Shown here one piece after another: positions 22,145-44,138 of a stretch of DNA of 64,000 nt. The notes under the pieces are model-generated. The model was not told the origin of the DNA, made no database searches, and worked only from the letters and a program-made list of their open reading frames with translations. This stretch comes from a virus, in IMG/VR virus record IMGVR_UViG_3300035698_026135, positions 1-64,000 of that record; one strand, 5' to 3'. The first letter of the stretch is position 1. Each line of letters begins with the position of its first letter. Made by a program: the position numbers and the translations under genes.

Positions 22145-22368
22145 TGTCTTTGGAAAATAGTCAGACAGAAGATCTGGAAAGTAGGTGGCAACAACAAATA
22201 AAAAGGTACACCGAAGAATTAAAGCTGTTCAAAAATGCTCTGATCAAAATAAATAAAATAAGGGAAGAGCTTCTTTTGATTCGAGAAGAGCTTGTCTCTC
22301 GAAATATCGAGGTTGACGAAGATATTCCCGAAGGAGCCGAAGAAAAGAGTTGCCAAAACGAAGCGTAG
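22144..22368 (+). CDS. Hypothetical coiled-coil protein
   Basis: 74-aa ORF with a TGATG overlap. Confidence 0.5.
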   Translation: MSLENSQTEDLESRWQQQIKRYTEELKLFKNALIKINKIREELLLIREELVSRNIEVDEDIPEGAEEKSCQNEA

Positions 22369-26651: not shown

Positions 26652-28478
26652 ATGGCAAAAAGTAGAAATTCAAAAATTATAAAATATTTCAATCTTGGAT
26701 TTGATGATTTCAAAAAAGATTTGAAAGATTTTTCTAGGATATATTTCCCAGATAGTTCGAAAGATTTGAGCGAAGCCTCTTCGGCACAAATGATGTTGGA
26801 GCAATCTTCTTACATCGGAGATGTCTTGAGCTTCTATCTTGAGAACCGATTTGCTAATTCTAACCTCTCGACCGCACGCGACCTCGACCAACTCTATATT
26901 CTTGCCCGAGACAGAGGGTATCCTATTGGTGGACCAACCGCCGCGACTGGCGAGACGAATTTTTATGCTGAAGTTCCTGCAACCACAGGCTCGCTCGGAG
27001 GGTATGTCCCCGACATGCGCTTTGCGCCCAACTTCAAGAAGGTTCAACTACAAAACACCAGCGGCATTGTTTTTGAAGCTCTGGATGATGTTAACTTCAA
27101 CGATGTGAATATATCCTCAAGTCTCGAATCCAGAGTTTCTCGAAGGACAGCTGCGGGATTGCCTTCGCACTTTGTGTTAAAGACGGCTCAAACGGTAGCC
27201 GCAGGCAAAACCATAACAGAGACGGTTACTATTGGTGACTTTAAGGCGTTCTATACTTTGGATATTAGCGAGCCTAACGTTTTAGATATCAAATCTATTG
27301 TTGATTCCGATGGCGATAAATATTACGAGGTGGAATACCTCGCAAATAAAACTATATTTGAAGGAGTCAAAAATCTAAGCGGAGATTCAAACCCGGTTCC
27401 CTATTCGCTAAAACTGAAGCCGGTACCAAGAAGATTTATCAAGAGGGTCAATCCCTCAACCGGCAAGACGACTCTTATATTTGGCTCAGGTAAAGAATCT
27501 GACATTGGCAACGCCTTTGTTCCAAACCCCGCAGATATAGCCCTGGATCTAAAGGGCAAGCTTACCTTCGCAGCCCCTTTTATTGATCCTCAAAACTTTT
27601 TAAAATCAAGAACACTAGGTCTCGCTCCGTATAATACCACCCTAACAATCAAGGCCCGAGTCGGCGGAGGAAAGATAACAAACACTTCAACTGGAGGCCT
27701 CAAGGATATTGTCAGCAAAGAACTTGAACTCGACACGTCGGCACTCGACCCCCGAGAGGTGAACAACACCCTTAGCTCTTTCTCTTCGGATAATGACAAA
27801 AGAATAACTGGAGGAAACGAAGCGCAAACAATAGAAGAAATAAGAGAAAACGCGGCCGCTTTCTTCGGAGCACAAGGACGACTCACTTCTCGCGAAGACT
27901 ATATTGCTCGGTCCCTCTCTCTCCCTGCAAAGTTTGGCCAGATTTTCAGAGTCTACCCAACAACAAATTGCACTCCCAACGGCGGTGTTCAACTGTACGT
28001 CATTGCAAAAGATGAAAACAATCAATTGATCGTGCCCCCAATAACCTTAAAGAAAAATTTGAAAACTTATCTCGCTCAATTCTCCAGGCTCAATCAAGGG
28101 ATTGATATCTTGGATGGAAGAATTATAAATATCGGTGTTGAATGGTCCATCGTTGTAGATCCAGACCTAAATAAGACGCAAGTGAAGTTGGAAACACTAC
28201 AGCTCGTCAAAGAGTTCTTTTCTGTCAGCAAATGGCAACTTAATCAACCAATATTTTTGGATGAAATTAGATGCCTGATAAAAGAAGTTGAAGGAGTTCT
28301 CTCAATATCAGAATTAAAAGTGGTAAATAAGAACAATTCAAGAGACGGAAATCAATATTCAGAACACGCTTATTCGATTGAAACAAATACAAAAAATGGT
28401 ATAATCTTCGCTCCCGAAAACGGAATGTTCGAAGTTAAGTTTCCAAATGGAGCCGACTTACGAGTTGGAGTGCTTTAA
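26652..28478 (+). CDS. gp6: Baseplate wedge protein gp6 / baseplate J-like
   Basis: FDDFK.DL..F....FP....D.SEAS...M.LE...YIGDVLSFYL; GG...QTIEEIR.NA...F.AQ.R..SREDY. Confidence 0.85.
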   Translation: MAKSRNSKIIKYFNLGFDDFKKDLKDFSRIYFPDSSKDLSEASSAQMMLEQSSYIGDVLSFYLENRFANSNLSTARDLDQLYILARDRGYPIGGPTAATGETNFYAEVPATTGSLGGYVPDMRFAPNFKKVQLQNTSGIVFEALDDVNFNDVNISSSLESRVSRRTAAGLPSHFVLKTAQTVAAGKTITETVTIGDFKAFYTLDISEPNVLDIKSIVDSDGDKYYEVEYLANKTIFEGVKNLSGDSNPVPYSLKLKPVPRRFIKRVNPSTGKTTLIFGSGKESDIGNAFVPNPADIALDLKGKLTFAAPFIDPQNFLKSRTLGLAPYNTTLTIKARVGGGKITNTSTGGLKDIVSKELELDTSALDPREVNNTLSSFSSDNDKRITGGNEAQTIEEIRENAAAFFGAQGRLTSREDYIARSLSLPAKFGQIFRVYPTTNCTPNGGVQLYVIAKDENNQLIVPPITLKKNLKTYLAQFSRLNQGIDILDGRIINIGVEWSIVVDPDLNKTQVKLETLQLVKEFFSVSKWQLNQPIFLDEIRCLIKEVEGVLSISELKVVNKNNSRDGNQYSEHAYSIETNTKNGIIFAPENGMFEVKFPNGADLRVGVL

Positions 28479-29830
28479 TGTTTAAGATTTTATACGCAAA
28501 TAAAGACAATACCATCACAGATGTCTCCTTGGACGGAAACTCTCCAAAAACCGGATCAAACCAGGGGAAGTCGGAGGTTCTCGAACTCTACGTTCTGCCG
28601 TTTGCAAGCGGGTCTGACGTAGGTATAAGCAGAATATTGATGCAATTTGATCTTTCCGATCTCTCTCAGTCAATTGTGGACGGTGACACCCCCTCTTCTG
28701 GAGTTCAATATATGATGAGGCTCATTGATGCCCCTCATGCCGAAACTCTGCCTACATCCTTCGATATTGAAGTCTATCCCCTGAGTAGATCTTGGGACGA
28801 AGGAATTGGCCTCTCCAATTTCGACGAAAACCTTCAGGATGGCGGGTATTCCAACTGGATGAACGCAACCTCCCTCGTATCTTGGACTCTCACTGGCTCT
28901 GATTACATTGCGGGTGAAGTCTCAGCATCTCAACACTTCGACGGAGGAGAGGGAGACCTATATGTTGACATGACAAATGTTGTTTATGCATGGCTCACAG
29001 GAGGGATGACAAATAACGGCATCGTAATAAAATATTTGGACGCTCACGAAGTTGGCGGCAATAAACTCTTCACTAAAAAGTTTTTCTCAACCCAAGCACA
29101 CGTATTAGGTCGTCATCCACGACTTGAGGCAAGGTGGAACGGATTCAAACAGGACGATCGAGACAACATAAAATACGGAACGAGCGGATCCCTTTTCTAT
29201 TATAGAATGATAAATGGCTCCCCTGAAAACGTCGCCGGCCCCCTATTTGTTGACATCTTCAATTCCAGCAGTGCCGTCGTTCAAACGATAACTTCTTCTC
29301 TGTCAGAGCAAGGAATCTATGAAGCCTCCGGAGTTTTCGTAAATTATACTGGATCAACTCAAATCTACAGAGATGTTTGGTTCACGGCTGCGGACCAAAT
29401 TTTTACTGGCAACTTCGCACCGACATACGCCTCAGGTTCAGATTGTATAAATTGCGACGATATTAATGTTAGCATTCCAAATCTTAAGAGTGAATATATC
29501 CAAGGAAACAAGAGCTTGATAAGAGTTTTTGCACGCCCGAAAGACTATCGTCCAGCAATAAGAAGCAGTGGCAGCATGGAGAACTTTCCAACGTTCCTAA
29601 AGGATGCCTATTATGAGGTCGTAAACGAAAAAACAAACAAAGTCCTCGTCCCCTTCTCGACAGGTAGCGTAAAATTCTCCAAACTCTCTTATGATTCTTC
29701 TGGAAATTATTTCGAGCTAGATACTTCAAATCTACTTCCAGGCGACCTGTATAGAATTAGAATTTTAGCAAACTATAATAAACAATCTCTCATTTTCGAT
29801 AAAAAGAACTGGGTAATCAAGGTTTCATAA
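28478..29830 (+). CDS. Virion baseplate-associated structural protein
   Basis: SRILMQFD, SWDEG.G, N.GIVIK, P.LE.RW; 8 [ST]GS tripeptides; follows gp6. Confidence 0.65.
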   Translation: MFKILYANKDNTITDVSLDGNSPKTGSNQGKSEVLELYVLPFASGSDVGISRILMQFDLSDLSQSIVDGDTPSSGVQYMMRLIDAPHAETLPTSFDIEVYPLSRSWDEGIGLSNFDENLQDGGYSNWMNATSLVSWTLTGSDYIAGEVSASQHFDGGEGDLYVDMTNVVYAWLTGGMTNNGIVIKYLDAHEVGGNKLFTKKFFSTQAHVLGRHPRLEARWNGFKQDDRDNIKYGTSGSLFYYRMINGSPENVAGPLFVDIFNSSSAVVQTITSSLSEQGIYEASGVFVNYTGSTQIYRDVWFTAADQIFTGNFAPTYASGSDCINCDDINVSIPNLKSEYIQGNKSLIRVFARPKDYRPAIRSSGSMENFPTFLKDAYYEVVNEKTNKVLVPFSTGSVKFSKLSYDSSGNYFELDTSNLLPGDLYRIRILANYNKQSLIFDKKNWVIKVS

Positions 29831-29836
29831 AAAGAC

Positions 29837-32800
29837 ATGTCAATCTTTAAATCGTTCGATCCTTCTTTTTTTAAGGAGTTCAAATCATCAACTCGCGAAG
29901 GCTATGATGATATTGCTGCTGACGGAGAAGAGATAGACAAAATCCAGTTTGAGATTAGCGAGAGCAATAAGCTAATGAAGCTCCGGGTGGACTACTCAGA
30001 CTTCGCTAATCATATCTTTTTTGGCTCCGCATACGCTGCGGTGAACTTTTCTTTATCGAGGATGTTAAATGACTATCCTGTCGATGGGGAACTGAAAGAA
30101 AAGAACGAATGGAAAAGAGTTTCCTCTGGGTTTGAAGAGCATTTTTTCAACGAATTTCCAAAACAACAAGGAAATTTATTTCTTGTTAGCGGTTCGGCGA
30201 CGGACACCTGGCTTGAGATTGAAGATCACGAGCATATCATGCGTCCCAATACGTCTTCGTTTGCATTCGATGCCGTCATAAAACCTCATGAAGACATCAC
30301 TTCAGATAACGCAATCTTTTCTTATCGAGAGCCGGACGGCTCCGAGGGTTTTTGGTCCTTTTTAAACACAGATAAAGAACTCAATTTCGTCGTTGCCAAT
30401 GGCGCCGTTTCTTCAATTTTAACAGCCAGCTATCACAACTTTGTCAGTGGCGCCCACTCCGTATCTTTCGTCTTTGATGCAATCGCCCAACAACAATTTA
30501 TTTATATTGACGGCATAGTAGAGAGTTCAAGGTCTGCTGGTGTAACAACGGGAGAAATCAATATTCCCCACAAAAAGTTTTACATTGGGGCCATGTCTGC
30601 TTCGGTATTCGGCTCTTATTATTCCGGAGCGATTGACGACTGCAGAATTTGGGTCGGCCCAACTAGAAAATCAGAGCTTGTAAAAAGAAATTATTACAAA
30701 CCTGTCCACGCAAATTTCTCTGGCGGGCTAAAGGGATATTATAAATTCAACGAGCCACTAGAAGCAGGTAGTGTTGCAATAGATTATTCCGGATATGCAA
30801 ATCACGGAAGTCTGACCGGCGCATTCGACCATTCTACCAACATTATTTCCGGAACCCTCGGAGCATGGTTTAAGGATTCTGGAGATCCTATCTTTGCTCT
30901 CAACAATTCCAGGGTTGATAGTTTCCTCACGGCACAGAGGTTCACTGGATCTCTTTATGACCGCAACAACAACAATTTTATATACAAGTTAATACCTTCC
31001 TTTTTTATAGACGAAGGAGACGAACATGAAGATATGCAAAGATTTCTTCTGTTGGTCGCGCGTCATTACGATCGACTAAAGCTTTATATTCAACACCTAT
31101 CAAATGTCTATAATACCGACCAGTCAGATTACAATAACACGCCAGACGAACTGATTAATCTTGTTGCCAAAAATTACGGCATGGACTTAGGCAATGTGTA
31201 TGCAGGTGCAGGTGCTTTGGAATACTTCTTTGGAGAGGAGGTTCTGCCGTCTGGCAGCTTGGACTCTTCACTGCAACAAATAAGAAATCAACTTCGAAGA
31301 AATCTCTTAACAAATCTAACGTATATTGTAAAAACCAAGTCGACCCGCGAAGCGATCGAGTCCTCGTTGCGTGCAATGGGCCTTGATGATTCTTTGATCA
31401 ATATAAACGAATATAGCACATTCTCTGGAGGTATAACAACCGCATTCGCACAGAAGAGCGTAGAGAGAAGGGTTGCAAATTTCGCCACATCATCAATCGT
31501 TTATGCAAAAAGCGAGAACTTATGGTCTTCAGGATCGAATCCCGATGTCTCCTATGAAACAAGAGTTCTTTTTAATACTGGATCTTCCCACCTAACTTCT
31601 TCGGTGTTCTCTTTTCAGTCTGGATCCAACAGGAGTTTGTATCTAGAGGTCGAAAGGGAAAATTTAACCTCCTCGACCGGTATTGCGAAACTATATTTTA
31701 CCACAGGAGCCGCAGCTGATGGCATAATTTTATCGTCAAGCGCCGCATCATTTTTTGATAATAACTGGGTGAACTTCGGCGCAAAACTTGAAACCACCGC
31801 CACTACAACGACGGTGACAAGTTTTTATGCAAACATTTTAGATCGCGACGAAATAAGTCTTTCTGAATCTATCTCTGGAACTTATATCCATGGATCAGAA
31901 GCGAGTTTTACAACAGGTGCGTTTGGAAACCGTGCCGACGTATCTCCTGACAGCTTCTTTGATGGTAAAATGCAAGAAATCAGAGCATGGTCGGGGCTCC
32001 TGTTGGACGAAAACTTCACGGCACACGCTAGAGATTTTGATTCTTTGGAAAATCCTGATTTTGCCGAATATCAAACAAAACTATCTTCGCATTATAAACT
32101 CGCCGACTTTACGTCCTCGACCTCAGGCGGCGGACCAATTCACGATTATGCAAACGGAGAAGCCGGAGCCACATATGAGGGATTTTCGTCAAGCGCAGCT
32201 TTTAATTTTCCCGGCCTCTACATTGATAAACTTGAGCCTTCATACTCTTATGATTTGGCAATCAATAACGACAAGATAAGAATAAGAGATAGAGACAATT
32301 TCACAAAACAAGACATAATAAGAGATATACCGTATGTGTCCGTTGATATATCTCCTGTAGCATCCCTAAACAAAGAGATAATTAAATGGTTTGGAGATCT
32401 AGAAAAGTTTAGCAATCTCATAGGCAAGCCGTATCTTCGCTATCGAGAGGAGGTTGATACCCTCAACAGCTTGAGATATTCCTTTTTTGAAAATAGACTA
32501 AATTCAAAAATTGATTTTGAATCCTATTTCAATGTACTGAAGTGGTTTGATTCAAATTTCACCTACTTCCTGAAACAGCTTATACCTCTAGATTTGATTT
32601 CAAGTCTTTCTAGTTTTGTTGTTGAGTCGCACCTTCTTGAATACAATCAGGTTCCTCGTATATTTCCGTTCAAGAGAAGGAATAACTCCTTTGATCTCAC
32701 AGGCGCCATAAGCGCCCAACCACTGCTTGATATAGCGCTCACAGCCGACGACCTACCCTTTGCGGACCCAGGCCGCTACGGAGCTGCTGTGAGCGCCAGT

Positions 32801-34033
32801 GGCGAGTTTGTGTCTGAGCTATTGTTTGATACAACTTCCTCTGTCTCGGGAGCCAGAGGAATATCGTTCAATAATCGTATGATAAGAAAGATTTGTACGG
32901 ACATGATGCAAGCGGACTCTGCATCCTCTTCCCCTCCGGGTTATGGTAACGGATTTTATACTCTCACCATTACTGGGTCTGAATATGAAAAAAATACTTA
33001 TAGTGCGATAGAAAATTTTCACATTTCCGGGGTCAACCATGGCGGCGCAGTCGGCGCGCATCCGGAATACCTCCACATGATGACGGCACCTATTAATACC
33101 CACTATACCGGAGCGATCAATGGAGTATTCGATCAAGGTTGGCTATGGACAGAAGCTTTATATAGCGAATTCTCAGCCAGCAACGTTTACATCCGTCCGG
33201 CCTTGGAGAACAGGTATTTCTCAGGAGCAGGGTATCCCTTCGCCGCTCTCCCAAGGGGTATTAAATACGGCGGCGCCTGGGGTCAACTTTTCTCCTTTAG
33301 TCAAAAGGGAGCACACTCTGTTTTTACGACCTTTAGTGGCACAGAAGGCGGGTCATCCAGCCAAACTAAAAGTTTTACAAATGTAAATTTTGTATCAAAC
33401 GCCAAGAATCCCACTTCAACAATAAGGGTAAGAGAGTCGTCAGAAGATTATAAAGAATTTATTCTTTGGCCTAACGAAGAGACCCATGAGCCCATTCTCA
33501 TCAAAAAGGTCGGCGCACTACAAACCGGATCTATTTCAACGACCGACATAACGGGAAAGGAGGTTTTAAAAGAGGCGAGTTTCCTAGGGAGCACGATAGA
33601 AACGGAAGGATTTAGAGATTTCTCTCTAAGTATTCTTGGGAAAAATCTTTGGGCGGATGACAGTCAAAAGATAGTCTTCAAAGTTAAATACCAATTTTAC
33701 GACACCCTTGGCGGAATCAATCGCTTCGAGGCGATATCGTCAGGCTCCATTGTTGTTGCGACTGGAGACGAAGATGACATTCTTGCCAAAACGACTGAAA
33801 TCGAACACGAATATTCCCTGGCCTACAGTGGAGCTTTAGATAAACAAAATGAGTTTGTTTTGCAGACCAATAGAAATATACCTTCAACAAAATATATGAG
33901 AACATTTATTAGAGTCGAATATCCCGACAATGCAGCCACAGAGTGTGGATATAAGATTAAGATTGTCGGCCGCCTAAAAAAGAATTTAGATCCATCAAAC
34001 GATAAGGTTTTTACACTACTGGAAAATAAATAA
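29837..34033 (+). CDS. Large baseplate wedge protein (gp7-like) with LamG/concanavalin-like domains
   Basis: VDYSDF.N..FFGSA; IYIDG..E and YSGAIDDCRIW..L.GYYKFNE; K.TR.AI...LR.MG; FFDGKMQEIRAW. Confidence 0.7.
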   Translation: MSIFKSFDPSFFKEFKSSTREGYDDIAADGEEIDKIQFEISESNKLMKLRVDYSDFANHIFFGSAYAAVNFSLSRMLNDYPVDGELKEKNEWKRVSSGFEEHFFNEFPKQQGNLFLVSGSATDTWLEIEDHEHIMRPNTSSFAFDAVIKPHEDITSDNAIFSYREPDGSEGFWSFLNTDKELNFVVANGAVSSILTASYHNFVSGAHSVSFVFDAIAQQQFIYIDGIVESSRSAGVTTGEINIPHKKFYIGAMSASVFGSYYSGAIDDCRIWVGPTRKSELVKRNYYKPVHANFSGGLKGYYKFNEPLEAGSVAIDYSGYANHGSLTGAFDHSTNIISGTLGAWFKDSGDPIFALNNSRVDSFLTAQRFTGSLYDRNNNNFIYKLIPSFFIDEGDEHEDMQRFLLLVARHYDRLKLYIQHLSNVYNTDQSDYNNTPDELINLVAKNYGMDLGNVYAGAGALEYFFGEEVLPSGSLDSSLQQIRNQLRRNLLTNLTYIVKTKSTREAIESSLRAMGLDDSLININEYSTFSGGITTAFAQKSVERRVANFATSSIVYAKSENLWSSGSNPDVSYETRVLFNTGSSHLTSSVFSFQSGSNRSLYLEVERENLTSSTGIAKLYFTTGAAADGIILSSSAASFFDNNWVNFGAKLETTATTTTVTSFYANILDRDEISLSESISGTYIHGSEASFTTGAFGNRADVSPDSFFDGKMQEIRAWSGLLLDENFTAHARDFDSLENPDFAEYQTKLSSHYKLADFTSSTSGGGPIHDYANGEAGATYEGFSSSAAFNFPGLYIDKLEPSYSYDLAINNDKIRIRDRDNFTKQDIIRDIPYVSVDISPVASLNKEIIKWFGDLEKFSNLIGKPYLRYREEVDTLNSLRYSFFENRLNSKIDFESYFNVLKWFDSNFTYFLKQLIPLDLISSLSSFVVESHLLEYNQVPRIFPFKRRNNSFDLTGAISAQPLLDIALTADDLPFADPGRYGAAVSASGEFVSELLFDTTSSVSGARGISFNNRMIRKICTDMMQADSASSSPPGYGNGFYTLTITGSEYEKNTYSAIENFHISGVNHGGAVGAHPEYLHMMTAPINTHYTGAINGVFDQGWLWTEALYSEFSASNVYIRPALENRYFSGAGYPFAALPRGIKYGGAWGQLFSFSQKGAHSVFTTFSGTEGGSSSQTKSFTNVNFVSNAKNPTSTIRVRESSEDYKEFILWPNEETHEPILIKKVGALQTGSISTTDITGKEVLKEASFLGSTIETEGFRDFSLSILGKNLWADDSQKIVFKVKYQFYDTLGGINRFEAISSGSIVVATGDEDDILAKTTEIEHEYSLAYSGALDKQNEFVLQTNRNIPSTKYMRTFIRVEYPDNAATECGYKIKIVGRLKKNLDPSNDKVFTLLENK

Positions 34034-34272
34034 TGGCATTCCTGGACCCAAAAGAAGAACTATTAAAAATAATACTAACTGACTACGGAAGAAAAAAGCT
34101 TTCGATGGGCGGCCTGGATATTAAATACTATGCCTTTGCTGATGATGAGGTAGATTATACTAATCGCGACACACCTTTAGTCCCAGGCTCAATATTATAT
34201 GCCTCTCTCGCTAATGATGAGGGCGAAGTTTTGATGAATGATGAGGGAGAAATAATTTACGTTATTATTTAA
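34033..34272 (+). CDS. Small structural protein, paralog of the N-terminus of 40324-41040
   Basis: MAFLD....ILTDYGR.KL....IKYYAFADDEVDY. Confidence 0.7.
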   Translation: MAFLDPKEELLKIILTDYGRKKLSMGGLDIKYYAFADDEVDYTNRDTPLVPGSILYASLANDEGEVLMNDEGEIIYVII

Positions 34273-34277
34273 TATAA

Positions 34278-34916
34278 ATGGCAAACAATGAACTAACAGG
34301 CTCCGAAACTCATAGATTTTCAAGCATTCATCAAAATTGGCTTATTTTTGAGCCGATGTCTGCGCACGAAAATTCTTTAAATAGTCGTCTCTATACGGTT
34401 CCACTCGGACAAACCAAGAAGCCCGAGCTATACATCTCTACTGGCTCTGTCTCTAGTGTGTCGGGAACAATAACAATAGAGAAAGATATTCATATTTTTG
34501 ATGATGAAGGAGAGGCCGTTGAATTTTTGTCAGAATTAGGAGAGGATTCGATTGCGTCCTATAAGGAGACTAAGGTTTCCGACAAAATAAATGGAGACGT
34601 TGTGCTTTTTGAGATTCACGTTATAAATTATCCGGTAATCGAGTTTGATCTAAATTTTCGAGAGAGGGATGTAGAGAAAGGTTTTGTCGTCGAGCCTTTC
34701 AGAAGCGGAAGCATTTTTGATACAGGCGAAATTGTTAGTTTAGAGCCGGTAACCAGAGAGCTTAATTTTGACCAACAAGGCCGCCTAATTACAGATACAT
34801 ATTTGAGATTTTTTTCAATCACAACCGACGAAGATAACGAAGTGGAAAATACCACAAAGCCTACTGAAAATGTTGACGACGACGAACGAATATCTGATAC
34901 CGATGGGGCACTATAA
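34278..34916 (+). CDS. Structural protein (hypothetical)
   Basis: 212-aa acidic ORF with 3 [ST]GS; LIFEP....SLNSRL resembles the segment following DDEIDY in 40324-41040. Confidence 0.6.
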   Translation: MANNELTGSETHRFSSIHQNWLIFEPMSAHENSLNSRLYTVPLGQTKKPELYISTGSVSSVSGTITIEKDIHIFDDEGEAVEFLSELGEDSIASYKETKVSDKINGDVVLFEIHVINYPVIEFDLNFRERDVEKGFVVEPFRSGSIFDTGEIVSLEPVTRELNFDQQGRLITDTYLRFFSITTDEDNEVENTTKPTENVDDDERISDTDGAL

Positions 34917-36448
34917 TGAGTATTTTTGATGTCGCTGGAGCACTGAGCAAAAAGAGGGAATCTAAGACCCCAAAAATTAATACCTTTTCTGTCCAAAGGA
35001 ACCTTACGTTCAGGGGATATAAATGCACTTTGAATTGGGAGTCTGACGACAGGAGAATTGTAGGATTTAGAGTTTATAGATCTCGCTCGCAAAAAGTGAT
35101 GCTCAACAGAAGTTATAAAATATCTCAGCTTGCACTAGAAAGGCTATCGACAGTCAAGGCATTTGCCTTGCCGAATTCGACTCTGTTTGACAAGCAGATA
35201 TTTAGCCAAAACTCAAAACTAAAGTTCGAAAACTCTAAATCTACACGATATACAAAGCCAGATGAAGATAATAATGCCAGAGCACACGAATATGAAGAAG
35301 TTGGATTCGTGAAGAGGTCTTCGGACGGAGTTTATACATTCGAAGACAAAAGAGTGAAGTTTGGAGAGACCTACTGCTATGTGATATCGGCCATCGGCCT
35401 ACAAGGCTTTGGTTCGGAGAAGTCTAGTCCAGTTACCGTGAGAATAGAAGATCTAGATTTCCCAGACGCCCCAGCAAACGTCGTATTGACAGAAGGAGCA
35501 GGGAGCATACAGATTGAAATCTGCTCAGAGACAACCGCAAAAGATGTTGAATATTTTGATATATATAAGAGAGACGCAACAGGAAAGGAAGACTTTAAAA
35601 GCATAGGGAAAGTTAAGCTTGGAGGCACTTCCGTCTCCCTGTTTATAGATTCCGAAATTCTCCCAGGCAAGAGATATGAATATAAAATTTATTCCGTTGA
35701 CCTCTTTGGCAACTTCTCTTTGACTGCCAAACAAAACAATGCAAGCTATTTGGGAAACCTAGAAAGAAGGTTGGATATTCCAAATCCGAAATATAAAATC
35801 AGCATTGACTCAATTGGAAATGTTATTTTTTCCGGAGAGAAAAATAGTGACAAAATTATCGGCTATAGAATAGAGAGAAAGGATGCCTGGAGATTTCAAC
35901 AACGTTTTGAATCTAAAACATTGCTCCAAAAGCCGTGGCCATCCGTTGTCAAATTTGACGAAAACGGAGAGATGGAATTTGTTGACAATCGAGCACAACA
36001 AGGCCGAGCCTATCAATATAGAATATCTTCAATAAAGAAAAACGGCCGCCCGGCAACATTCTCTATTACGCCACACATCAGAATAGAGGATGGATATCAA
36101 TTCCCTCCCAGCGGCAGCGCAGGAATCCAAGAGACCGGCGAAGTGGAATTTACAAGACTTAAGGCTAACGCTGTAGAGACCAAACAAAATCCAATATATA
36201 CAAAGCTGCAATGGGAAATAAAAGGAAGTTGGGAATATTTACTTCTAGAAATAAGAGATGCAAAATTGGATCCAGACCCAAATCCCAAAATTGTCAAGAT
36301 AGACAATATAACAGAGAGAAATTTTGTTTTTATCAACAGTCTCAATAGAGATAGGCAATATATCCTAACGGCTAAGATATATGATGTTTTTGATAATCTG
36401 GTTGGAGAATCAAGCTCTCCTATGAATAGAGTGAGGATATCAATATAA
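34916..36448 (+). CDS. Fibronectin type III-like repeat structural protein
   Basis: Repeated GFRVYRS / FEDKRVKFGETYCY.ISA / FIDSEILPGKRYEYKI / FVDNRAQQGRAYQYRI. Confidence 0.7.
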   Translation: MSIFDVAGALSKKRESKTPKINTFSVQRNLTFRGYKCTLNWESDDRRIVGFRVYRSRSQKVMLNRSYKISQLALERLSTVKAFALPNSTLFDKQIFSQNSKLKFENSKSTRYTKPDEDNNARAHEYEEVGFVKRSSDGVYTFEDKRVKFGETYCYVISAIGLQGFGSEKSSPVTVRIEDLDFPDAPANVVLTEGAGSIQIEICSETTAKDVEYFDIYKRDATGKEDFKSIGKVKLGGTSVSLFIDSEILPGKRYEYKIYSVDLFGNFSLTAKQNNASYLGNLERRLDIPNPKYKISIDSIGNVIFSGEKNSDKIIGYRIERKDAWRFQQRFESKTLLQKPWPSVVKFDENGEMEFVDNRAQQGRAYQYRISSIKKNGRPATFSITPHIRIEDGYQFPPSGSAGIQETGEVEFTRLKANAVETKQNPIYTKLQWEIKGSWEYLLLEIRDAKLDPDPNPKIVKIDNITERNFVFINSLNRDRQYILTAKIYDVFDNLVGESSSPMNRVRISI

Positions 36449-37554
36449 TGGCCTATTTCCCCTTACGTTATGCCTCTCTATATTCTTCTACTCTATACAA
36501 AAAGGCGGCGACAGTAAACAACGTCACCGTGGCGCAAAAAGCCACTGTCTCAACGACCCTCGCTAAAGCTTTCCCGACCGTGTTATTAACACAGATGCTC
36601 AGTGCCGCACCTAGTCTCACTCCCGTTCTCTCGAAACCCGGTGGTACAACCGCAGCCATTACGTCTCCAACGACTGCAACTGCAATCTCTCCAGTTCGTT
36701 TTTTCAGCGGAATAAATGCCGCAGCGACCGCCACCGCACCACTCCAAAACATTCAAGCTGCAACCACAACCGCAACCGCAGCCATCAAGACTTCGACCGC
36801 TGCGAACATGATTCAAATGCCGTCCGCAGGCGTACTAGAGGCACACAACCAAAAGCTCGGAGCAAAAACAGGTGGTCATTCTCTACTTTTTACTTCAGGA
36901 AAGAAGAATGGCGGCATCCTCACCAAAGAAGAGACGGGGAGTCTTTTTGATTTTTCTAAAAAGAAGCCCTCAAACAAGATTCAGATTTCAACAGATGTAC
37001 TCCTTGACACTCGCGAAGCTAAATCTGTTGAAAGGGGAGCCCCGGAGATCCCCCCAGAAGAAAAGGAATTCCAAAGCGACCCTCCAGAGATGAAACTCGC
37101 CGAGAACGAAAAACCCAGAATTTTATCTATTATCGAAGAAAATTTCCGCGACAATGGAGTTCCAGAAAAGATTGTTTTGGTAGTTAAAAAACTCTTCGTT
37201 GGCAAAAAATGGATACCTAAAGGGTATAGGATATTGAAAAAATCTGTCTTCACAGATGAGGATTACACCGAAATCGCACGCCTTGAAGCTAGCCAACCAA
37301 TACCGCAAAGATACCGCAGAACAATTAAAGATGCCGGCCTCAGTATTGAGGACGTCTTCCTCTATGTGGACAACAATATCGAGTCAGGCCAGGTATATGC
37401 CTATAAAATAAGGGCAGAATACGAATCGGTAGCAGAATTAGTTACAGACTTTGTGGTTGCAAACATTACCGCCAATATTGGACTCAACACGTTCAATCTT
37501 CTTCAATTAACTCAGGCTCAACAGGCCGCAGAAAGCAAGAGAATACTTAGATAA
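36448..37554 (+). CDS. Structural protein with a Thr/Ala-rich N-terminus and an FN3-like C-terminus
   Basis: T/A-rich residues ~15-120; YVDNNIESGQVYAYKIRA. Confidence 0.6.
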   Translation: MAYFPLRYASLYSSTLYKKAATVNNVTVAQKATVSTTLAKAFPTVLLTQMLSAAPSLTPVLSKPGGTTAAITSPTTATAISPVRFFSGINAAATATAPLQNIQAATTTATAAIKTSTAANMIQMPSAGVLEAHNQKLGAKTGGHSLLFTSGKKNGGILTKEETGSLFDFSKKKPSNKIQISTDVLLDTREAKSVERGAPEIPPEEKEFQSDPPEMKLAENEKPRILSIIEENFRDNGVPEKIVLVVKKLFVGKKWIPKGYRILKKSVFTDEDYTEIARLEASQPIPQRYRRTIKDAGLSIEDVFLYVDNNIESGQVYAYKIRAEYESVAELVTDFVVANITANIGLNTFNLLQLTQAQQAAESKRILR

Positions 37555-37555
37555 G

Positions 37556-40222
37556 ATGCCATCAATAAAAATACAAAATGTAGACAAGGCAGAGGTTCAA
37601 GTAAGAAATCTCTCCATTCCGCCGCCCGATTCAACTGCGGAGGTTGATCTTCGCCAATCTCTGTCCAACACACAAATACGTTCAGTTTTAGGCCCCGGCC
37701 AAGCTTTTTCGTTAACCAACAAGCTTAAAATAGAATTTATTCCCACAAAAAACACGGCCTCACCCGAGAAAGATAACGTATTTTGGGAAGATACCATACT
37801 CGAAGGAATAGGAGCATGGGATGCCGGCCTGTGGTTTAAAGACAAAAACGAAGTTGTCTCTTTCGATCGAGACTTGTACTCTATCGTCTTCCGTGGCCCC
37901 GTAAAAGTAACCCTGAACGGAACGGAGGCTGAACTTGAAATTTCCGACAATTTTAAAAATTATGTAAAAGATTATTTTAAGGGACGAGGAATCAATATTC
38001 CGACCGTAGGATTTCTGAGCCTAAAAATAGAGAGTCATCCTATCGATGTTAATGATGACCTTCAAGACAATCGAAGGGTTGACTACCTTCTGATAAAAAC
38101 CTCCTTTGATCCTCTTGTTATAGAGGGAGATATTGACGAAGCAAATCTCACAAAAGTTCCAGAAAGAGAGCAATGTGAGGTTCGCCCCGTAAAAATGCCC
38201 GATGGCTCCACCAGATATGTGAAAGTCAAACCCGCAAGAAAGAAGTCTGTCCCAGTAACTGCGGCCGAAAGATTCGCGGAGGCCCGCGAAAACGCCACTC
38301 TAGCATATTATGAAACAGAACCCTTTGCATATGAATCCTTGCAAGTTCCTTTGTTGTCCGGACATTTTGTTTATAATTTTTTTGAAGCCAGCGAAGAGTC
38401 CTCGGAGGTCGCCCGCCGTAGAAACTATAAACTAAAAAAAAAGAGAGATATACCCAAATATATACAGTTGAAATGGAGCCCATCTCCTGCCGTTTTGGTG
38501 GTTAAGCCCTCTCCTCCTCCATCAAAATCGCCTACCACCACCAATATTATAAAAACATTTTCACAACAAAAGATAGAACAACAGAAAAAGGGTGTACCTG
38601 TTGATCAATTAAAGAAGGATCCATCGAGATATAGCGAAATAGCTTCTATACCAGCAAAAGATACCTCCGGAATTCAGGCCGTCAACTCCCAAAACAATCA
38701 ATCATCGACTGGCAACTCCACATATTCCTCTCTTATTGGATATTACGGAGGAACAAAGACCAAAACAGAAACCGCAGCCTATACGGGAACTTCTTATTCT
38801 TTGAATGGTACCAATTTGGCCCTTGGCGGGTATAAAAACGAATCAGAGGCGATACTGTCATCAAACACGAGAACTGGAAACCTACTGAAGGCCCAAGTGG
38901 CAGAGAGAGCGTCAGCAGAAGCCATTAAAACCGCCACACTTGAGACCAACAAGACCACTGCGGGTTTCGTTGCCAACAAAGTCCAGACCCTCGCCCGCCC
39001 ACTCAGATCCGCAGGGCAAGAGATTGAATTTGTCGACACGAGCGCCCGCGAACTAGCCGGAGCTTTTGATACCGACTCTTCTCTGTTTGTTGATGGCGAT
39101 CAATTTCAGGGCGTTTCAGATAGAGAAAATCAAATTATCGACAACCTAGTAAAGCTTACAGACCAACCTGATGCCATCGCGGGACCAAACGAGTTCTCTA
39201 GGTATATAGGCTACATCCTTCTGAAAGAGGTATTCAACCCGGAGACAGATCAGTACGATGCCGTCGACCTTCTTGTGGCTCTCGATCGAAGAAAGAGCGA
39301 GATTGTCGATACCAAAGTCTCTTATGATAACACGTATCGATACAAGATTAGGTCTGTCTATAAATTTATCAATGTTGACGAACTTCCCCTTTTTCGGGAT
39401 AAGGATTCCGTGATCACTCGCGATGTCAAAACCGTCTATAACGATGGAGTAACTCTAAAACACGCATATTACTTCGATTCAAAATTTTCAAATTCTATAG
39501 AAGTAACATGCTTGGATGATCGACGACCTGATCCTCCCTATTCCATCAAGATTAATCCAAACTCCAAAAAGAATGAAATATTTATCTCTTGGTCTCAAAG
39601 ATTTCAGAGTAAAGATATCGTAGGATATCACATTTACAGAAGAGAGAACGTAAAAGGCTCTACATTTAAAAGGATTAACAGAAGTTTGATTCCTCCTAGA
39701 AACAACTTTTTTGTTGACAGCTTAATCAAAAGGGACGTTGAATATATTTATACTATAGAAACCTTGGATGTTCATGATAACGAATCCAAATTATCGATTC
39801 AGAATATTGCGTCTACTAGATCTCAAGATTTTTCCCTAGGAAGAGTAGAGAATCCAATAAAGGTTCATCTAAACCAAGAAATCGAGTTTGATGAGGTTGT
39901 CGCAATCAAAAAGAGTGATATAATAAAGCTGAAAACGAATATCAAGATTGCAATTAATCCAATTTTCTTAAATTTGGATCGAGAATCAAACTATTTACTC
40001 AACATTAAGTCTTTAGACACTTTTGATGAAAAGGAAATTAAGTTAAATTTTAAAACGAAAATAATTAATCATAGAAAGGTTTTAGCTAGTAGTGATGAGT
40101 TTGAACGACAAAAAGAGAAAATCTCCAAAAGCTTTGAAATCAACCAACAAGGCCGCTACGGGATCACCGAAGAAGAGGCTCAACGTTTAACTAACAGAAG
40201 AAAGGAAGAATTTGATGAGTAA
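37556..40222 (+). CDS. Large FN3-like repeat structural protein
   Basis: IVDTKVSYDNTYRYKIR; PDPP...ISW....DIVGYHIYRR; FVDSLI.RDVEYIY.IE..DVHDNES. Confidence 0.65.
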   Translation: MPSIKIQNVDKAEVQVRNLSIPPPDSTAEVDLRQSLSNTQIRSVLGPGQAFSLTNKLKIEFIPTKNTASPEKDNVFWEDTILEGIGAWDAGLWFKDKNEVVSFDRDLYSIVFRGPVKVTLNGTEAELEISDNFKNYVKDYFKGRGINIPTVGFLSLKIESHPIDVNDDLQDNRRVDYLLIKTSFDPLVIEGDIDEANLTKVPEREQCEVRPVKMPDGSTRYVKVKPARKKSVPVTAAERFAEARENATLAYYETEPFAYESLQVPLLSGHFVYNFFEASEESSEVARRRNYKLKKKRDIPKYIQLKWSPSPAVLVVKPSPPPSKSPTTTNIIKTFSQQKIEQQKKGVPVDQLKKDPSRYSEIASIPAKDTSGIQAVNSQNNQSSTGNSTYSSLIGYYGGTKTKTETAAYTGTSYSLNGTNLALGGYKNESEAILSSNTRTGNLLKAQVAERASAEAIKTATLETNKTTAGFVANKVQTLARPLRSAGQEIEFVDTSARELAGAFDTDSSLFVDGDQFQGVSDRENQIIDNLVKLTDQPDAIAGPNEFSRYIGYILLKEVFNPETDQYDAVDLLVALDRRKSEIVDTKVSYDNTYRYKIRSVYKFINVDELPLFRDKDSVITRDVKTVYNDGVTLKHAYYFDSKFSNSIEVTCLDDRRPDPPYSIKINPNSKKNEIFISWSQRFQSKDIVGYHIYRRENVKGSTFKRINRSLIPPRNNFFVDSLIKRDVEYIYTIETLDVHDNESKLSIQNIASTRSQDFSLGRVENPIKVHLNQEIEFDEVVAIKKSDIIKLKTNIKIAINPIFLNLDRESNYLLNIKSLDTFDEKEIKLNFKTKIINHRKVLASSDEFERQKEKISKSFEINQQGRYGITEEEAQRLTNRRKEEFDE

Positions 40223-40322
40223 GAATATATATAACAAGACAGAGAAAGTAAAGATCGTCAAACTTCTTGACGGACTTTTTGGAAAGTTTGATAATAATAT
40301 CAAATATTTAGGAGAAAAATAA
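40215..40322 (+). CDS. Possible 35-aa protein (not in ORF track)
   Basis: AAGGA upstream; MSKNIYNKTEKVKIVKLLDGLFGKFDNNIKYLGEK fills the gap exactly. Confidence 0.3.
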   Translation: MSKNIYNKTEKVKIVKLLDGLFGKFDNNIKYLGEK

Positions 40323-40323
40323 C

Positions 40324-41040
40324 TTGGCGTTTATAGATCGATCAGGCGACATAATAGTAGATGCGGTGCTCACCGACGCCGGAAGAGAGAAATTAGCACG
40401 TAATGACGGCTCTTTTAGAATCGTAGGATATGCATTTGGCGACGACGAAATAGATTATACCCTATTTAATCCCACGACAGGCTCGGCATTTCAGGATGAA
40501 GAAATTCTAGAAACACCCCTATTTGAGGCTAATGTTAATGAAAAGATTGCCTTAAATTACCCTTTAATGATTATTTCAAATCCTAATTTGAAATATCTTC
40601 CAACTTTATCTCCGGACAACAACCAAGTTAATGTAGGCGAAGAGAAAGGCCTCTCTTCAGGCGTTACTTTAAGGTTTTTTCAGAATACAAATCAGAATGC
40701 TCGCGTTGTTCCTGTAGAGATTCAAGATTCAGGATTTAGAATCGAGATGTCACACGAATTATTGCAGGTTGAAGACGATTCTCCCGTGGATATAACTCCA
40801 TATGGAACTTCCATATACATAAGACAGCGAGACCCGCAGCTAATCCAGGCTACACAGGGGTCTCAAATCACCCTGAAGATCCGCCCCCAGTCTCTAAGCA
40901 ATACGACCTGGGATACTTTTGGCGTGGTCGGGTCGGGCGGAACCAAAAGAGATATAACAACAAAAGTTAAGGCGACCGGACTAAACTCGGGTCTATCCGC
41001 AGAAGTCACTATTGTGATAAATGAAGAATTTAATAGATAA
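40324..41040 (+). CDS. Baseplate/tail-fibre attachment-type structural protein
   Basis: DAVLTDAGREKLA....F.I..YAFGDDEIDY; TTG start with GGAG SD. Confidence 0.65.
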   Translation: MAFIDRSGDIIVDAVLTDAGREKLARNDGSFRIVGYAFGDDEIDYTLFNPTTGSAFQDEEILETPLFEANVNEKIALNYPLMIISNPNLKYLPTLSPDNNQVNVGEEKGLSSGVTLRFFQNTNQNARVVPVEIQDSGFRIEMSHELLQVEDDSPVDITPYGTSIYIRQRDPQLIQATQGSQITLKIRPQSLSNTTWDTFGVVGSGGTKRDITTKVKATGLNSGLSAEVTIVINEEFNR

Positions 41041-41058
41041 GGGAGATTTATATAAGAA

Positions 41059-42144
41059 ATGTTTAAAAATCTAGATACAGCAAGAGATATCGTCAATCAA
41101 CTCGCAACAGTCAATGAGGTTGCGGTTTATGGTCCCGGAGTCTTTACGGGCTCCTCGGGAGCGAACGGCGAATATAACGTCAAGAAGTTCAATCATTGGA
41201 CCTCTGGCTCCACAACTCCCGAATCAGGTAGCTATTATCACGCTGTTTATTCTGACAATTATTCCGGCTCGTTTTCTGTCGAGTTGGCAAATATTTCTTT
41301 TGGATATTCTATTTCCTCCTCTTTCTATGTGAGTAGAAGTCTCGCCGGAGATTTTGTTCACGCTACCAACTTTCAAGAAAAGAACAGGATTTATAAACTT
41401 TATGCAAAACAGCTCCTCGGAGACGAAAAGTCTCTTTTCTCAATAGGTGGGTCTACGCGTAATGAACTTATCTTCCTGTCTCTTAGGCGAAGTCAATATA
41501 AAGACGAACTTAAAAAAGGTACCGTCGCGATACAAATGATGGCATCTGGAACAGCAAGACCAGCTGGAGGCGCAAACGAAGAAAGAAATAATCAAGTTTT
41601 TATCGACGAAGGAGCATCAACAGCATTTTCTCGCGGGAATCGTGGAGATTATGCATCTCTAACGTCAGGAAGTCTTACGGGCGGCCTCGTGTTTTATCAG
41701 GCTGGAATCGTAGCGCTTGTTCCAGAGATCATTAGTAATACTAGCTCGCTTGCCACGAATCCCGGAAACGAATGGTCCGGATCTAACGACTATCTGTCGA
41801 TGGTCGTGTCTGGTGGAGAGGGAAATTTTGACGATCTACTAAATGCGGTTCGATATAGACTTATAAATCTATCTGTCGTAAATCAGTCTAATCTACATTC
41901 CACTTTCTATTTCTGTCGCGCATTGAATGATGAGTTTAATTATTCTTCCAATCCAACCTTTATAGACTCAGCAGGAAGAATCCTTCCCACCTCTGGAAAC
42001 ACAGACCTCAATACAAGAACTTACATCACCAAAGTTGGCCTCATGGGCGAAAATAGCGAAATGCTCGCTATGGCATCTTTATCTAGACCCTTAAAGAAAA
42101 CTCCAGAATCCGAACTGGTAATAAAGGTAAGACTAGATTATTAG
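41059..42144 (+). CDS. Structural protein, paralog 1 of 3 sharing the C-terminal FC.A...EFNYS.NP / YIT.VGL / LS.P.K / RLDY domain
   Basis: C-terminal motif shared with the next two genes; 6 [ST]GS. Confidence 0.7.
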   Translation: MFKNLDTARDIVNQLATVNEVAVYGPGVFTGSSGANGEYNVKKFNHWTSGSTTPESGSYYHAVYSDNYSGSFSVELANISFGYSISSSFYVSRSLAGDFVHATNFQEKNRIYKLYAKQLLGDEKSLFSIGGSTRNELIFLSLRRSQYKDELKKGTVAIQMMASGTARPAGGANEERNNQVFIDEGASTAFSRGNRGDYASLTSGSLTGGLVFYQAGIVALVPEIISNTSSLATNPGNEWSGSNDYLSMVVSGGEGNFDDLLNAVRYRLINLSVVNQSNLHSTFYFCRALNDEFNYSSNPTFIDSAGRILPTSGNTDLNTRTYITKVGLMGENSEMLAMASLSRPLKKTPESELVIKVRLDY

Positions 42145-42156
42145 AGATGTCTCAAA

Positions 42157-43287
42157 ATGAAAAAATTCGATCTAAACAAAGATGTAATCTATACCTTCGG
42201 AACGATAACAGCTAACGAAAGATTTGGCTTCGAAGGACAAGGAAATTTCTTCGAGGAAGAATTTAAATACCACCGCGAATACAACTCGTCAGGTTGGACT
42301 GTCGGAAATATCTCAGGAGCGTATTACGTTTCTTGTTTTGACACCTTTCGCTCTGGAACGCTCAATCCATCTCGCCAGGGAGATCTTTCGTTCGGCGTGA
42401 GCGTTTCGTCCTCCATTGCTAGTGCTGCTGGTCAAGAGGCGGGAACCGTAAATTATTTTCCTCAAAAATTAAAAAACTATAGGAGGCATTCACAACTTGT
42501 TTTGGGTGACCCTAATAAGATTTTTAGCTTCAACGGAATTCCAAAAAACGAATTAATTTTTATAAGTTTTCCCCGCTCAAGGGTCTGGGATGGAATAAAG
42601 CCAGGATCATTTGTTTTGCATGCTCGATACTCGGGATCATTTGGCGACGGAGCACGGAAGGCCGGCTTCAATCCCTTCGGGAGCGAAAGGCAGATGCGCG
42701 ATGTACCTTCCGAAGTCATCACTCGTCAAGGCCGCAAGGGAGACATCTACCTAAACACCGACGACGACGGGCAACCGCGAGACCCAGATTACGCAGCAGA
42801 CTCTTTGGAAATCGCCGCCCAAATATATTATGACATCGGCCTCTTGGTGGTTGATCCAACAAAGGTTGGGTTCTCCAGTTCTTTTAGTAAGGATGACTGG
42901 TATCAATCCGGGACAGTTTCGGCATCATATGGAGAACTCGTTTCGAACATTAGCTCTTCAAACACGGGTCTCGAAGAATTGTATACGGCGATGGCCGCAA
43001 GATTTGGATTATTTCAATACGAGAAACAGAGCAAGGTGGCCCAAACCTTCTATATTTGTAAGGCTGATCGCGGAGAATTTTGTTATTCGCCAAATCCCAG
43101 CTTTACCGCAGACGACGGAAGTATCATTACCGTCTCCGGCACACAAAATTTTTCTCCATCAGCCTATATCACTAGGATCGGCCTCTTAGGAGAAAACCAA
43201 GAGACTTTAGCTGTTGCAAATCTCAGTAAGCCGGTAGAAAAAACCTTCGACAACAACGTAGAGATACTTGTGAGGCTAGATTATTAA
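42157..43287 (+). CDS. Structural protein, paralog 2 of 3
   Basis: FYICKADRGEFCYSPNPSF...YITRIGL..EN.E.LAVANLSKP.K....VRLDY. Confidence 0.7.
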   Translation: MKKFDLNKDVIYTFGTITANERFGFEGQGNFFEEEFKYHREYNSSGWTVGNISGAYYVSCFDTFRSGTLNPSRQGDLSFGVSVSSSIASAAGQEAGTVNYFPQKLKNYRRHSQLVLGDPNKIFSFNGIPKNELIFISFPRSRVWDGIKPGSFVLHARYSGSFGDGARKAGFNPFGSERQMRDVPSEVITRQGRKGDIYLNTDDDGQPRDPDYAADSLEIAAQIYYDIGLLVVDPTKVGFSSSFSKDDWYQSGTVSASYGELVSNISSSNTGLEELYTAMAARFGLFQYEKQSKVAQTFYICKADRGEFCYSPNPSFTADDGSIITVSGTQNFSPSAYITRIGLLGENQETLAVANLSKPVEKTFDNNVEILVRLDY

Positions 43288-44138
43288 TGTCCTTCTTTAA
43301 ACTCAGAGATTGCGATGTTATATCAACATCGTATACCGCCCATCCTAATTATGACGTCAATATGTCGGGCGCAAATATTGTAACCGATATTTTTGGATCT
43401 GATCCTTACACCATCTTTAACTCCACGTCTGTTGGGCACCAGAGAACCTTTCAAGACCTTGAAGGAAACACTGTCACTGGATCTTACAACCTAACTGGGA
43501 ACGTCCTCTTTCTTTCTTCTGATATATTGAGCGGCTCCGAAAAACGATCTCTAAGTAGACTAAAGGACATATATGGATCGTCTTCCTTCGTTAAGACAGA
43601 AAATTATTTATCATCGGCGATCTTTAATCCTGCAACAGGAATAGAAGATGAAACGATTCATATCGTCAACATCCCGCAGGTTTTATATGGATCTCAACTT
43701 AAAGGCGGGAGTATAAACATCACAACAAACGGCGGTCAAAAATATCACGATGACTCCTATGGCGGCGTTTTTTCTGGCTCTCTACTTGTTGGTTCTGTTT
43801 TTTATCAACACGGAATCATCCTATTAGGGAGAAAATTTACAACAGGCGGCATTGTTGGTATTTCCGCTTCGTTCAGCGGAACCCACAAGATACCCCTAAA
43901 TCTATATCTCTGCCGTGCCGAAAAGGGCGAACTAAATTTTTCGCAAAACACCTCTTATGTTGAGTTGGTCACCGGATCGAATTATGAAGAGACTTCCACG
44001 ACCAGACCTAAGACGTTCATAACGGGCGTCGGACTTTACGATGAAGATTATAAACTCGTTGGCGTGGCCAAGGTGTCAACGCCCATCCTAAACGAAGAAG
44101 ATACAAATATACTTTTTAAATTAAAATTGGTATTTTAA
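43287..44138 (+). CDS. Structural protein, paralog 3 of 3
   Basis: YLCRAEKGELNFSQN...TFITGVGLYDEDYKLVGVAKVSTP....FKLKLVF. Confidence 0.7.
   Translation: MSFFKLRDCDVISTSYTAHPNYDVNMSGANIVTDIFGSDPYTIFNSTSVGHQRTFQDLEGNTVTGSYNLTGNVLFLSSDILSGSEKRSLSRLKDIYGSSSFVKTENYLSSAIFNPATGIEDETIHIVNIPQVLYGSQLKGGSINITTNGGQKYHDDSYGGVFSGSLLVGSVFYQHGIILLGRKFTTGGIVGISASFSGTHKIPLNLYLCRAEKGELNFSQNTSYVELVTGSNYEETSTTRPKTFITGVGLYDEDYKLVGVAKVSTPILNEEDTNILFKLKLVF

Follow-up and report, generated by a model that had tools for sequence, protein, structure and literature searches.

Does the tripeptide Ser/Thr-Gly-Ser ([ST]GS), which recurs in the tail proteins of a T4-like phage, mark the places where that phage would attach sugars to its own particle? 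The question is raised by the window, the 64,000-nucleotide stretch analysed here, which covers the first 64 kb of one IMG/VR viral contig of 113,329 bp (IMGVR_UViG_3300035698_026135, below G000; CheckV completeness ~52%). The window carries a 19-kb glycan island (363-19736) upstream of a tail module, and a preliminary description, made from the sequence alone, had taken the [ST]GS sites for an acceptor sequon read by the glycosyltransferases (GTs) of that island. We found the tripeptide six- to eight-fold in excess in the outer particle proteins of this phage and of nearly all its relatives, and confirmed the observation as real, strong, set at the level of protein, specific to one clade and limited to outer virion proteins. 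A glycosylation sequon is the best single explanation for it, still an unproven one, and has to be weighed against a structural turn, another surface function, and an island that acts on something else.

[ST]GS in the outer virion proteins

The sites lie in the following genes, named below by their start coordinates (aa, amino acids):

28478-29830, + strand: 450-aa protein just after the gp6-like wedge; 8 [ST]GS at residues 25, 44, 139, 236, 291, 319, 364 and 395, against 0.75 expected
29837-34033, + strand: 1398-aa protein at the place that gp7 takes in T4; ConA-like lectin domain at residues 122-273; 9 [ST]GS against 2.06 expected, and 10 [ST]GA
34278-34916, + strand: 212-aa tail-module protein; 3 sites against 0.20 expected
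41059-42144, + strand: 361-aa tail-module protein, first of three paralogues; 6 sites against 0.81 expected
42157-43287, + strand: 376-aa paralogue; 1 site
43287-44138, + strand: 283-aa paralogue; 4 sites against 0.68 expected
63930-64000, + strand: start of a 386-aa neck/adaptor-like gene running to 65090; 4 sites against 0.41 expected, with FSGS at its start

The preliminary description had counted the sites of 28478, 29837, 34278, 41059 and 43287 by hand, and its counts were exact (30 in 2704 aa). The same holds for its contrast set of SbcCD, TerL, portal and the two large GTs, with 1 [ST]GS in 3427 aa, and for the roughly ten [ST]GA that it saw in 29837, which a recount put at 10 for an expected 1.26. 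The FSGS that it had noticed at the start of the neck gene is there as well, and the gene (63930-65090) proved to be a sixth carrier. Expectations for the five counted proteins come from whole-protein shuffles, the composition-corrected test that had been proposed, and the excess survived in all five (p<=0.002 each). Shuffling within blocks of 10, 20 or 40 residues, by which local Ser and Gly richness is kept, gave 5.4-7.0 sites against the 34 observed, a figure never reached in 2000 shuffles. Between them, the two kinds of shuffle rule out a composition artefact. A first-order Markov expectation takes up much of the signal and is still exceeded (p ~0.005-0.012).

As a guard against post-hoc choice of the motif, we scored every one of the 8000 possible tripeptides in the 11 proteins that make up the 28-44 kb module: TGS (15 vs 2.4) came first and SGS (19 vs 4.0) second (p ~4e-8), with the third-ranked tripeptide at 4e-4. 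Twelve outer-virion proteins together hold 38 [ST]GS for 6.7 expected (standard deviation 2.6), and the other 105 + strand open reading frames (ORFs) hold 14 for 15.9. The related motifs that had also been called frequent are above expectation, as claimed, but more weakly than [ST]GS (observed/expected: SGT 9/2.4, SAS 7/3.3, TSS 8/3.5, SSS 11/5.8); further related tripeptides are SGA (8/2.2) and TGA (5/1.4). Known bacterial sequons were not enriched in the virion proteins, with 16 occurrences of D[ST][AILVMT], the sequon of Bacteroidota, for 18.9 expected, and 60 of N[^P][ST] for 54.9. The motifs G[ST]P and [ST]GxT likewise showed no excess.

The signal lies in the protein and not in the DNA, since the 34 sites are encoded by 31 different 9-mers with mixed codons, and a DNA-level motif was thereby ruled out. 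The first position (position 0) takes Ser or Thr only: xGS was observed/expected at 21/4.2 for S and 17/2.6 for T, with no excess for N (1/2.5), D (4/2.4), A (2/2.3) or G (3/3.0). Gly fills position 1, and at position 2 Ser leads Thr and Ala by a wide margin; SGN is not enriched. Within 29837, [ST]GA is as enriched as [ST]GS, so that Ala is accepted as third residue at least in this protein. Conserved columns of the best 120 homologues give the same logo (S/T ~95-100%, G ~90%, then S>T>A). The flanks prefer hydrophobic residues (at -2, -1 and +1) and avoid basic ones. A self-comparison of the six carriers returned zero off-diagonal hits, in agreement with the earlier statement that the motif is not a repeat expansion. 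Hidden homology among carriers was ruled out too: only 41059, 42157 and 43287 are related, as paralogues, and outside this trio the motif recurs, as had been proposed, in proteins without detectable kinship.

Judged from predicted structures, the location of the sites fits surface exposure, most of them falling in predicted loops. The 28478 protein is a chain of Ig-/macroglobulin-like beta-sandwich domains (AlphaFold2 (AF2) pLDDT 89; Foldseek matches to multi-beta-sandwich chains). For the 41059 model (AF2 pLDDT 84), Foldseek and VIA-align found no clear match in the PDB (best Z 4.6), and the placement of this protein in the virion therefore rests on synteny. We read the 14 sites of these two models as DSSP states. 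The motif Gly is in coil at 12 of them; three sites are exact two-residue hairpin turns (E--E), and longer loops or the beginnings of strands account for the others. The sheath proteins of four clade members have 14 sites, 13 of which align with residues ~96-304 of T4 gp18, which we take to be the outer domains of the sheath protein, or with insertions; none of the 14 falls in the conserved C-terminal core. The gp6-like wedge has at most one site in each of three genomes checked, and portal and tube have none.

Distribution and turnover in the Far-T4 clade

By its gene content the contig is a distant T4-like myovirus, uncultured, of the Far-T4 group. Its T4-like markers include:

26120: gp25-like protein
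26652: gp6-like baseplate wedge
69134, beyond the window: sheath

Other T4-like genes of the contig are TerL, portal, a fused SbcD-SbcC, a prohead protease and a gp23-like capsid protein, and nearly every gene lies on the + strand. Its capsid protein places the contig nearest, among named relatives, to Flavobacterium phage vB_FspM_immuto, Microcystis phage Mel-JY01, Rhodothermus phage RM378 and the uncultured jumbo phage LR756508, and the 'Far-T4' group that includes them has been described (PMC4360716). Megablast of the region against phage records gave no match, nor did an IMG/VR scan with the single protein 28478. In sequencing runs the contig takes up small shares of DNA runs only, with no RNA holder listed.

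Genome-wide, [ST]GS is in excess in G000 (observed/expected 52/23.4), immuto (118/48.5), Mel-JY01 (134/55.4) and RM378 (53/19.8), and it is not enriched in four T4-like controls: T4 (20/29.2), Acinetobacter phage Lazarus (31/27.1), Streptococcus phage GXN1 (68/52.1) and Synechococcus phage S-SCSM2R (67/61.7). None of the four controls has a gene of GT family 4 (GT4). The preliminary description had named equal enrichment of orthologues in phages lacking the GTs as one of the outcomes that would refute a sequon, and these GT4-less controls do not display it; a generic property of tail proteins is ruled out by the same four genomes. A single control protein above 150 aa reached p<0.02, a 462-aa unannotated ORF of S-SCSM2R (3 vs 0.37). 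All 80 of the 80 IMG/VR loci found with the 41059 family are enriched (median ratio 2.97; TGS 490 vs 146, SGS 559 vs 197), and the best 120 homologues hold 567 sites for 87 expected in the case of 41059 and 679 for 79.5 in that of 28478. The excess of immuto and Mel-JY01 is found mainly in the syntenic baseplate/fibre block, and the carriers of RM378 are mostly unannotated large proteins, several of which adjoin the neck-gene homologue.

Two neighbourhoods in these relatives deserve mention. At 3065-8430, near its terminase gene, Mel-JY01 encodes a 'structural protein' with 13 [ST]GS for 2.5 expected; downstream lie a 44-aa ORF, a 1226-aa FkbM-methyltransferase/GT4 fusion and, further on, a 639-aa cytidylyltransferase-like protein. 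In RM378, a UDP-galactopyranose-mutase-like gene (112985-114136), that is, a glycan-precursor gene amid tail genes, lies four genes downstream of the 41059 homologue.

Sites are conserved, with turnover. Among relatives at 25-40% identity, 40% of the sites are retained as against 6% for generic tripeptides; more than half of them differ between relatives at <=55% identity, and about five per protein are kept at all distances. As an example, six alignment columns of the 41059 family are kept as [ST]-G-[STA] in ~60% of the best 120 homologues. Its paralogue 42157 has one site here and five in an IMG/VR orthologue, a case of site turnover, and 43287 shares one of its four sites with a 55%-identical orthologue. 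Columns conserved in the 28478 family read PGG, other residues or gaps in the homologues of LR756508, immuto and Mel-JY01, single columns being uncertain at 25-28% identity, and the immuto and Mel-JY01 homologues have sites of their own elsewhere in the protein.

The glycan island and the role of the motif

The island is made up of a pair of genes at its head and a variable part:

363-1661, + strand: GT1, a 432-aa GT4-family glycosyltransferase; clade core gene
2083-4338, + strand: GT2, a second GT4-family enzyme of 751 aa; its N-terminal half is a core gene always adjacent to GT1
4335-19736, + strand: variable part with two GT2-family enzymes, at least three methyltransferases and sugar-nucleotide enzymes

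Here GT1 and GT2 denote the two GT4-family proteins (genes at 363 and 2083), and 'GT2-family' refers to the other phage-encoded glycosyltransferases, at 4335 and 14830. GT1 and GT2 have adjacent orthologues in immuto and Mel-JY01, and the two stand side by side in 15 of 18 long IMG/VR records of the clade, among them all five with a completeness of at least 90%. A search of the phage database with GT1 hit only the seven clade records that hold a 41059 homologue. The pair follows a PD-(D/E)XK nuclease in immuto and Mel-JY01 and heads islands with otherwise different sugar genes, which looks like a conserved initiating pair followed by variable elaboration. In the ESM Atlas, the N-terminal (acceptor) half of GT1 matches phage protein clusters almost exclusively: its structure matches are all viral, and a few weaker feature matches are bacterial GT4 clusters; PDB matches to GT1 (including PBCV-1 B736L, E 1.7e-7) cover the donor-binding half only. 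GT2 here has an added C-terminal heptosyltransferase-like (GT9) piece (residues 624-678; PF01075 at 19.6 bits for a cut-off of 22), present in some clade members only, and this piece scores 22.2 bits against RfaQ for a cut-off of 467, below membership of the GT9/BAHT family.

The variable part also encodes a B12 radical SAM enzyme, a UDP-glucose-dehydrogenase-like enzyme, a cytidylyltransferase-like enzyme, a PfkB sugar kinase and an HNH-cupin protein. Among NCBIfam families, the B12-binding radical SAM enzyme (11568-13118) comes nearest to HpnJ and PhpK-type methyltransferases, which hints at methylation of a sugar on C or P. The HNH-cupin protein (18513-19736) joins an HNH domain to a cupin domain of the mannose-6-P-isomerase-like kind. 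The only protein of the island with several hydrophobic segments (15701-16021; 106 aa, three segments) was considered as a GtrA-like flippase and rejected, being a DUF5658 protein (E 2.9e-15).

Such an island might act on DNA or on a polymer of the host envelope, with the motif unrelated to it. T4-type phages often glycosylate their DNA, and GT4 and GT9 enzymes usually use lipid or sugar acceptors. DNA glycosylation is nevertheless unlikely because immuto DNA carries fdPreQ1 and no glycosylated base: liquid chromatography-mass spectrometry found dA, dC and dT in canonical form and, in place of all dG, fdPreQ1 that was not glycosylated, in a paper whose main text does not mention glycosylation (PMC10516641). 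Nor did we find a thymidylate-synthase-like gene, such as would resemble a hydroxymethylcytosine synthase, in Mel-JY01 or RM378. An acceptor in the host envelope fits poorly with the conservation of the pair in phages whose hosts differ as much in envelope as Bacteroidota (Flavobacterium), Cyanobacteria (Microcystis) and Rhodothermus, and the islands of G000, immuto and Mel-JY01 encode no multi-pass membrane protein of Wzx/Wzy (flippase/polymerase) size. An island with such a role would moreover leave the motif unexplained, and we regard it as very improbable.

We tentatively favour the view that [ST]-G-[S>A,T] is under selection, is specific to the clade and sits on surface loops of the outer virion proteins, and that it would most likely serve as an acceptor site for cytoplasmic O-glycosylation. 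The conserved GT4 pair (363-1661, 2083-4338) would attach a first sugar to the Ser/Thr at position 0, whose hydroxyl is the best conserved of the motif, and the acceptor sites would lie at the tips of loops or hairpins in folded proteins of the baseplate periphery, the fibres, the neck and the outer sheath domains. The variable island (two GT2-family enzymes, the GT9-like domain, methyltransferases, the B12 radical SAM enzyme and nucleotide-sugar enzymes) could then build a phage-specific glycan, and the result would be a sugar-coated tail. Each of these biochemical steps, the acceptor residue and the joint action of the two GTs are what we infer.

The sequon proposed in the preliminary description thus draws strength from the composition-corrected excess, the unenriched GT-less controls, the predicted loops and the core status of the pair, but its link between genes and motif is not clean and a structural glycine turn keeps its place beside it. 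Several findings weigh against glycosylation. LR756508, a 484-kb jumbo relative, is nested in the clade as (G000,(LR,(immuto,Mel-JY01))), with ultrafast bootstrap values of 95-100 on all four inner branches, in a tree that left out RM378. It keeps a GT1 orthologue next to the nuclease, in conserved synteny, yet has little enrichment (genome 128 vs 89.7; 28478 homologue 0 vs 0.24; 41059 homologue 3 vs 0.34; syntenic baseplate block 6 vs ~2.0); it lacks GT2. RM378, for its part, has GT1 and no GT2, yet is enriched. Neither gene alone therefore tracks the motif. Across genomes, four that bear GT4 are enriched and four GT4-less controls are not, yet all the enriched ones belong to one clade; the pair and the motif are both clade traits, their co-occurrence counts as roughly one evolutionary event, and we found no clade member without the GTs. 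The likeness of the GTs to known protein O-glycosyltransferases (GtfA, SdgA) is limited to the generic GT4 donor domain, with scores of 15.6 bits for a GtfA cut-off of 574.6 (NCBIfam TIGR02918) and 19.2 for an SdgA cut-off of 800 (NF047880). In the literature on immuto, Mel-JY01 and RM378 we found no glycoprotein staining or mass spectrometry of virions, nor does any clade member offer chemical evidence of glycoproteins. Lastly, by turn statistics Gly followed by Ser is a common beta-turn sequence, and in the fibres of immuto and Mel-JY01 the motif lies within periodic strand-turn repeats of period 6, e.g. F-TGS-IYI-SGS-I.

Period-6 repeats of this kind would fit a lineage-specific structural turn, in which [ST]-G-S is a preferred tight turn or loop cap (Gly at i+1, the Ser/Thr side chain capping the backbone) that carries no modification and is kept for folding or assembly in beta-rich outer virion proteins, the GT island serving something else. 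The exact hairpins among the modelled sites, the hydrophobic flanks, the many sites that form conserved columns, and an LR756508 that has GT1 without the motif excess all point the same way. However, the tails of the T4-like controls are equally beta-rich and have no excess, and residues common in generic turns, Asn or Asp at position 0 and Asn at position 2, are not enriched (NGS, DGS, SGN). Contexts vary from site to site, long loops and strand starts included, and at <=55% identity over half of the sites change place although the count stays much the same, with PGG or gaps tolerated at orthologous positions. The excess also extends over at least five unrelated protein families and is missing from the inner parts of the virion. 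Taken together, an unmodified turn appears to us a rather doubtful account of the motif.

The same statistics, which indicate that a clade-specific factor selects the motif on exposed proteins, would be met by some other surface function, be it a different modification (phosphorylation, acylation) or contact with an assembly factor or with polymers of the host surface, and the baseplate module does encode an SGNH/GDSL-type hydrolase (22350-23456). However, the genes common to G000, immuto and Mel-JY01 include no conserved kinase or acyltransferase, and the two GT4 proteins are the only clade-core modifying enzymes identified. A function of this sort strikes us as improbable.

A wider form of the glycosylation proposal, to which we commit even more guardedly, is that Far-T4 phages write the sequon [ST]-G-[SA] on outward loops, that the GT4 pair reads it and that each lineage adds a glycan of its own, which would give rise to strain-specific coats and phage 'serotypes'. 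If true, sequence alone would suffice to predict where phage particles are glycosylated, the large glycan islands that are core or near-core in an abundant aquatic T4-like clade would be explained, and sugar coats could bear quite generally on phage stability, on host recognition and on how phages evade recognition by hosts or grazers. A direct test is possible because three clade members are in culture: immuto (Flavobacterium sp. LMO8), Mel-JY01 (Microcystis) and RM378 (Rhodothermus marinus). LR756508 is a natural contrast, with the nuclease-GT1 synteny kept and the second GT4 and most of the [ST]GS excess gone. Even if the motif is structural, a clade-wide tripeptide so specific across unrelated folds calls for explanation.

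Some further features of the window stand apart from the motif. A gp5/VgrG-like spike piece (DUF2345, 23456-24088) follows immediately on the SGNH/GDSL (DUF459) hydrolase-domain protein, an arrangement that suggests a tail-tip esterase, possibly a deacetylase for host polysaccharide. An SbcD-like nuclease (residues 1-291) and an SbcC-like ATPase (375-1015) form one fused 1022-aa ORF at 45601-48669, with a homologue of similar length (1066 aa) in Mel-JY01. The prohead protease gene (57318-59030, 570 aa) matches proteases over residues 439-567 only, and its residues ~68-377 match PHROGs typical of genes that bear inteins or homing endonucleases (thymidylate synthase, ribonucleotide reductase, TerL); the insert is probably an intein or other insertion. 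Three GIY-YIG/NUMOD homing-endonuclease-like genes are scattered in the glycan island and baseplate module (14166-14840, 24088-24786, 25524-26216).

Comparison with known glycosylation systems

Virus-encoded glycosylation of particles is known from the chloroviruses and mimiviruses: Vp54 of PBCV-1 is modified at atypical sequons, and the fibril glycans of Megavirinae are made by clade-specific gene clusters. Shared with the phages studied here would be a cytoplasmic machinery of the virus itself, sets of glycan genes that vary by clade and acceptor motifs that are non-canonical. In contrast, those are giant viruses of eukaryotes, the chlorovirus linkage is to N, and the enzymes are not orthologous, their likeness to B736L being that of generic GT4 proteins (E 1.7e-7).

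Among bacterial systems, GtfA/GtfB and SdgA/SdgB, which O-GlcNAcylate serine-rich repeat (SRR) adhesins, also consist of two adjacent GT4-fold proteins that act in the cytoplasm on Ser-rich contexts of surface proteins. The putative substrates here are folded and non-repetitive instead of SRR or SD repeats, and the scores against those families are far under the cut-offs. The autotransporter heptosyltransferases (Aah/TibC, BAHT family) recognise a 'beta-strand - short acceptor loop - beta-strand' motif, and are thus cytoplasmic O-glycosyltransferases that modify Ser in short turns between strands of folded beta-rich proteins, much as proposed here; the window adds to this a GT9-like piece as well as HldE-like kinase and nucleotidyltransferase genes. 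Unlike in that family, the GT9-like match is below the Pfam cut-off and the clade-core enzymes are GT4.

To our knowledge, few phages have been shown to glycosylate their virions, and none of them at a short acceptor motif. The nearest parallel is the system of mycobacteriophages, in which, as Freeman et al. (Cell Host Microbe 31:1216, cited in PMC12582341) reportedly found in 2023, virions are O-glycosylated by phage-encoded glycosyltransferases, with glycans on capsid and tail-tube subunits; we are aware of no short sequon in that system. Those phages are siphoviruses of Actinobacteria, whereas the case made here, from sequence, concerns an aquatic clade of T4-like myoviruses in which a defined tripeptide occurs on proteins of the baseplate, fibres, neck and sheath, and which has a GT4 pair among its core genes besides a large island of variable content. 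What the two have in common are phage-encoded GTs beside or near the structural genes and a sugar coat, here a proposed one, on exposed proteins of the virion.

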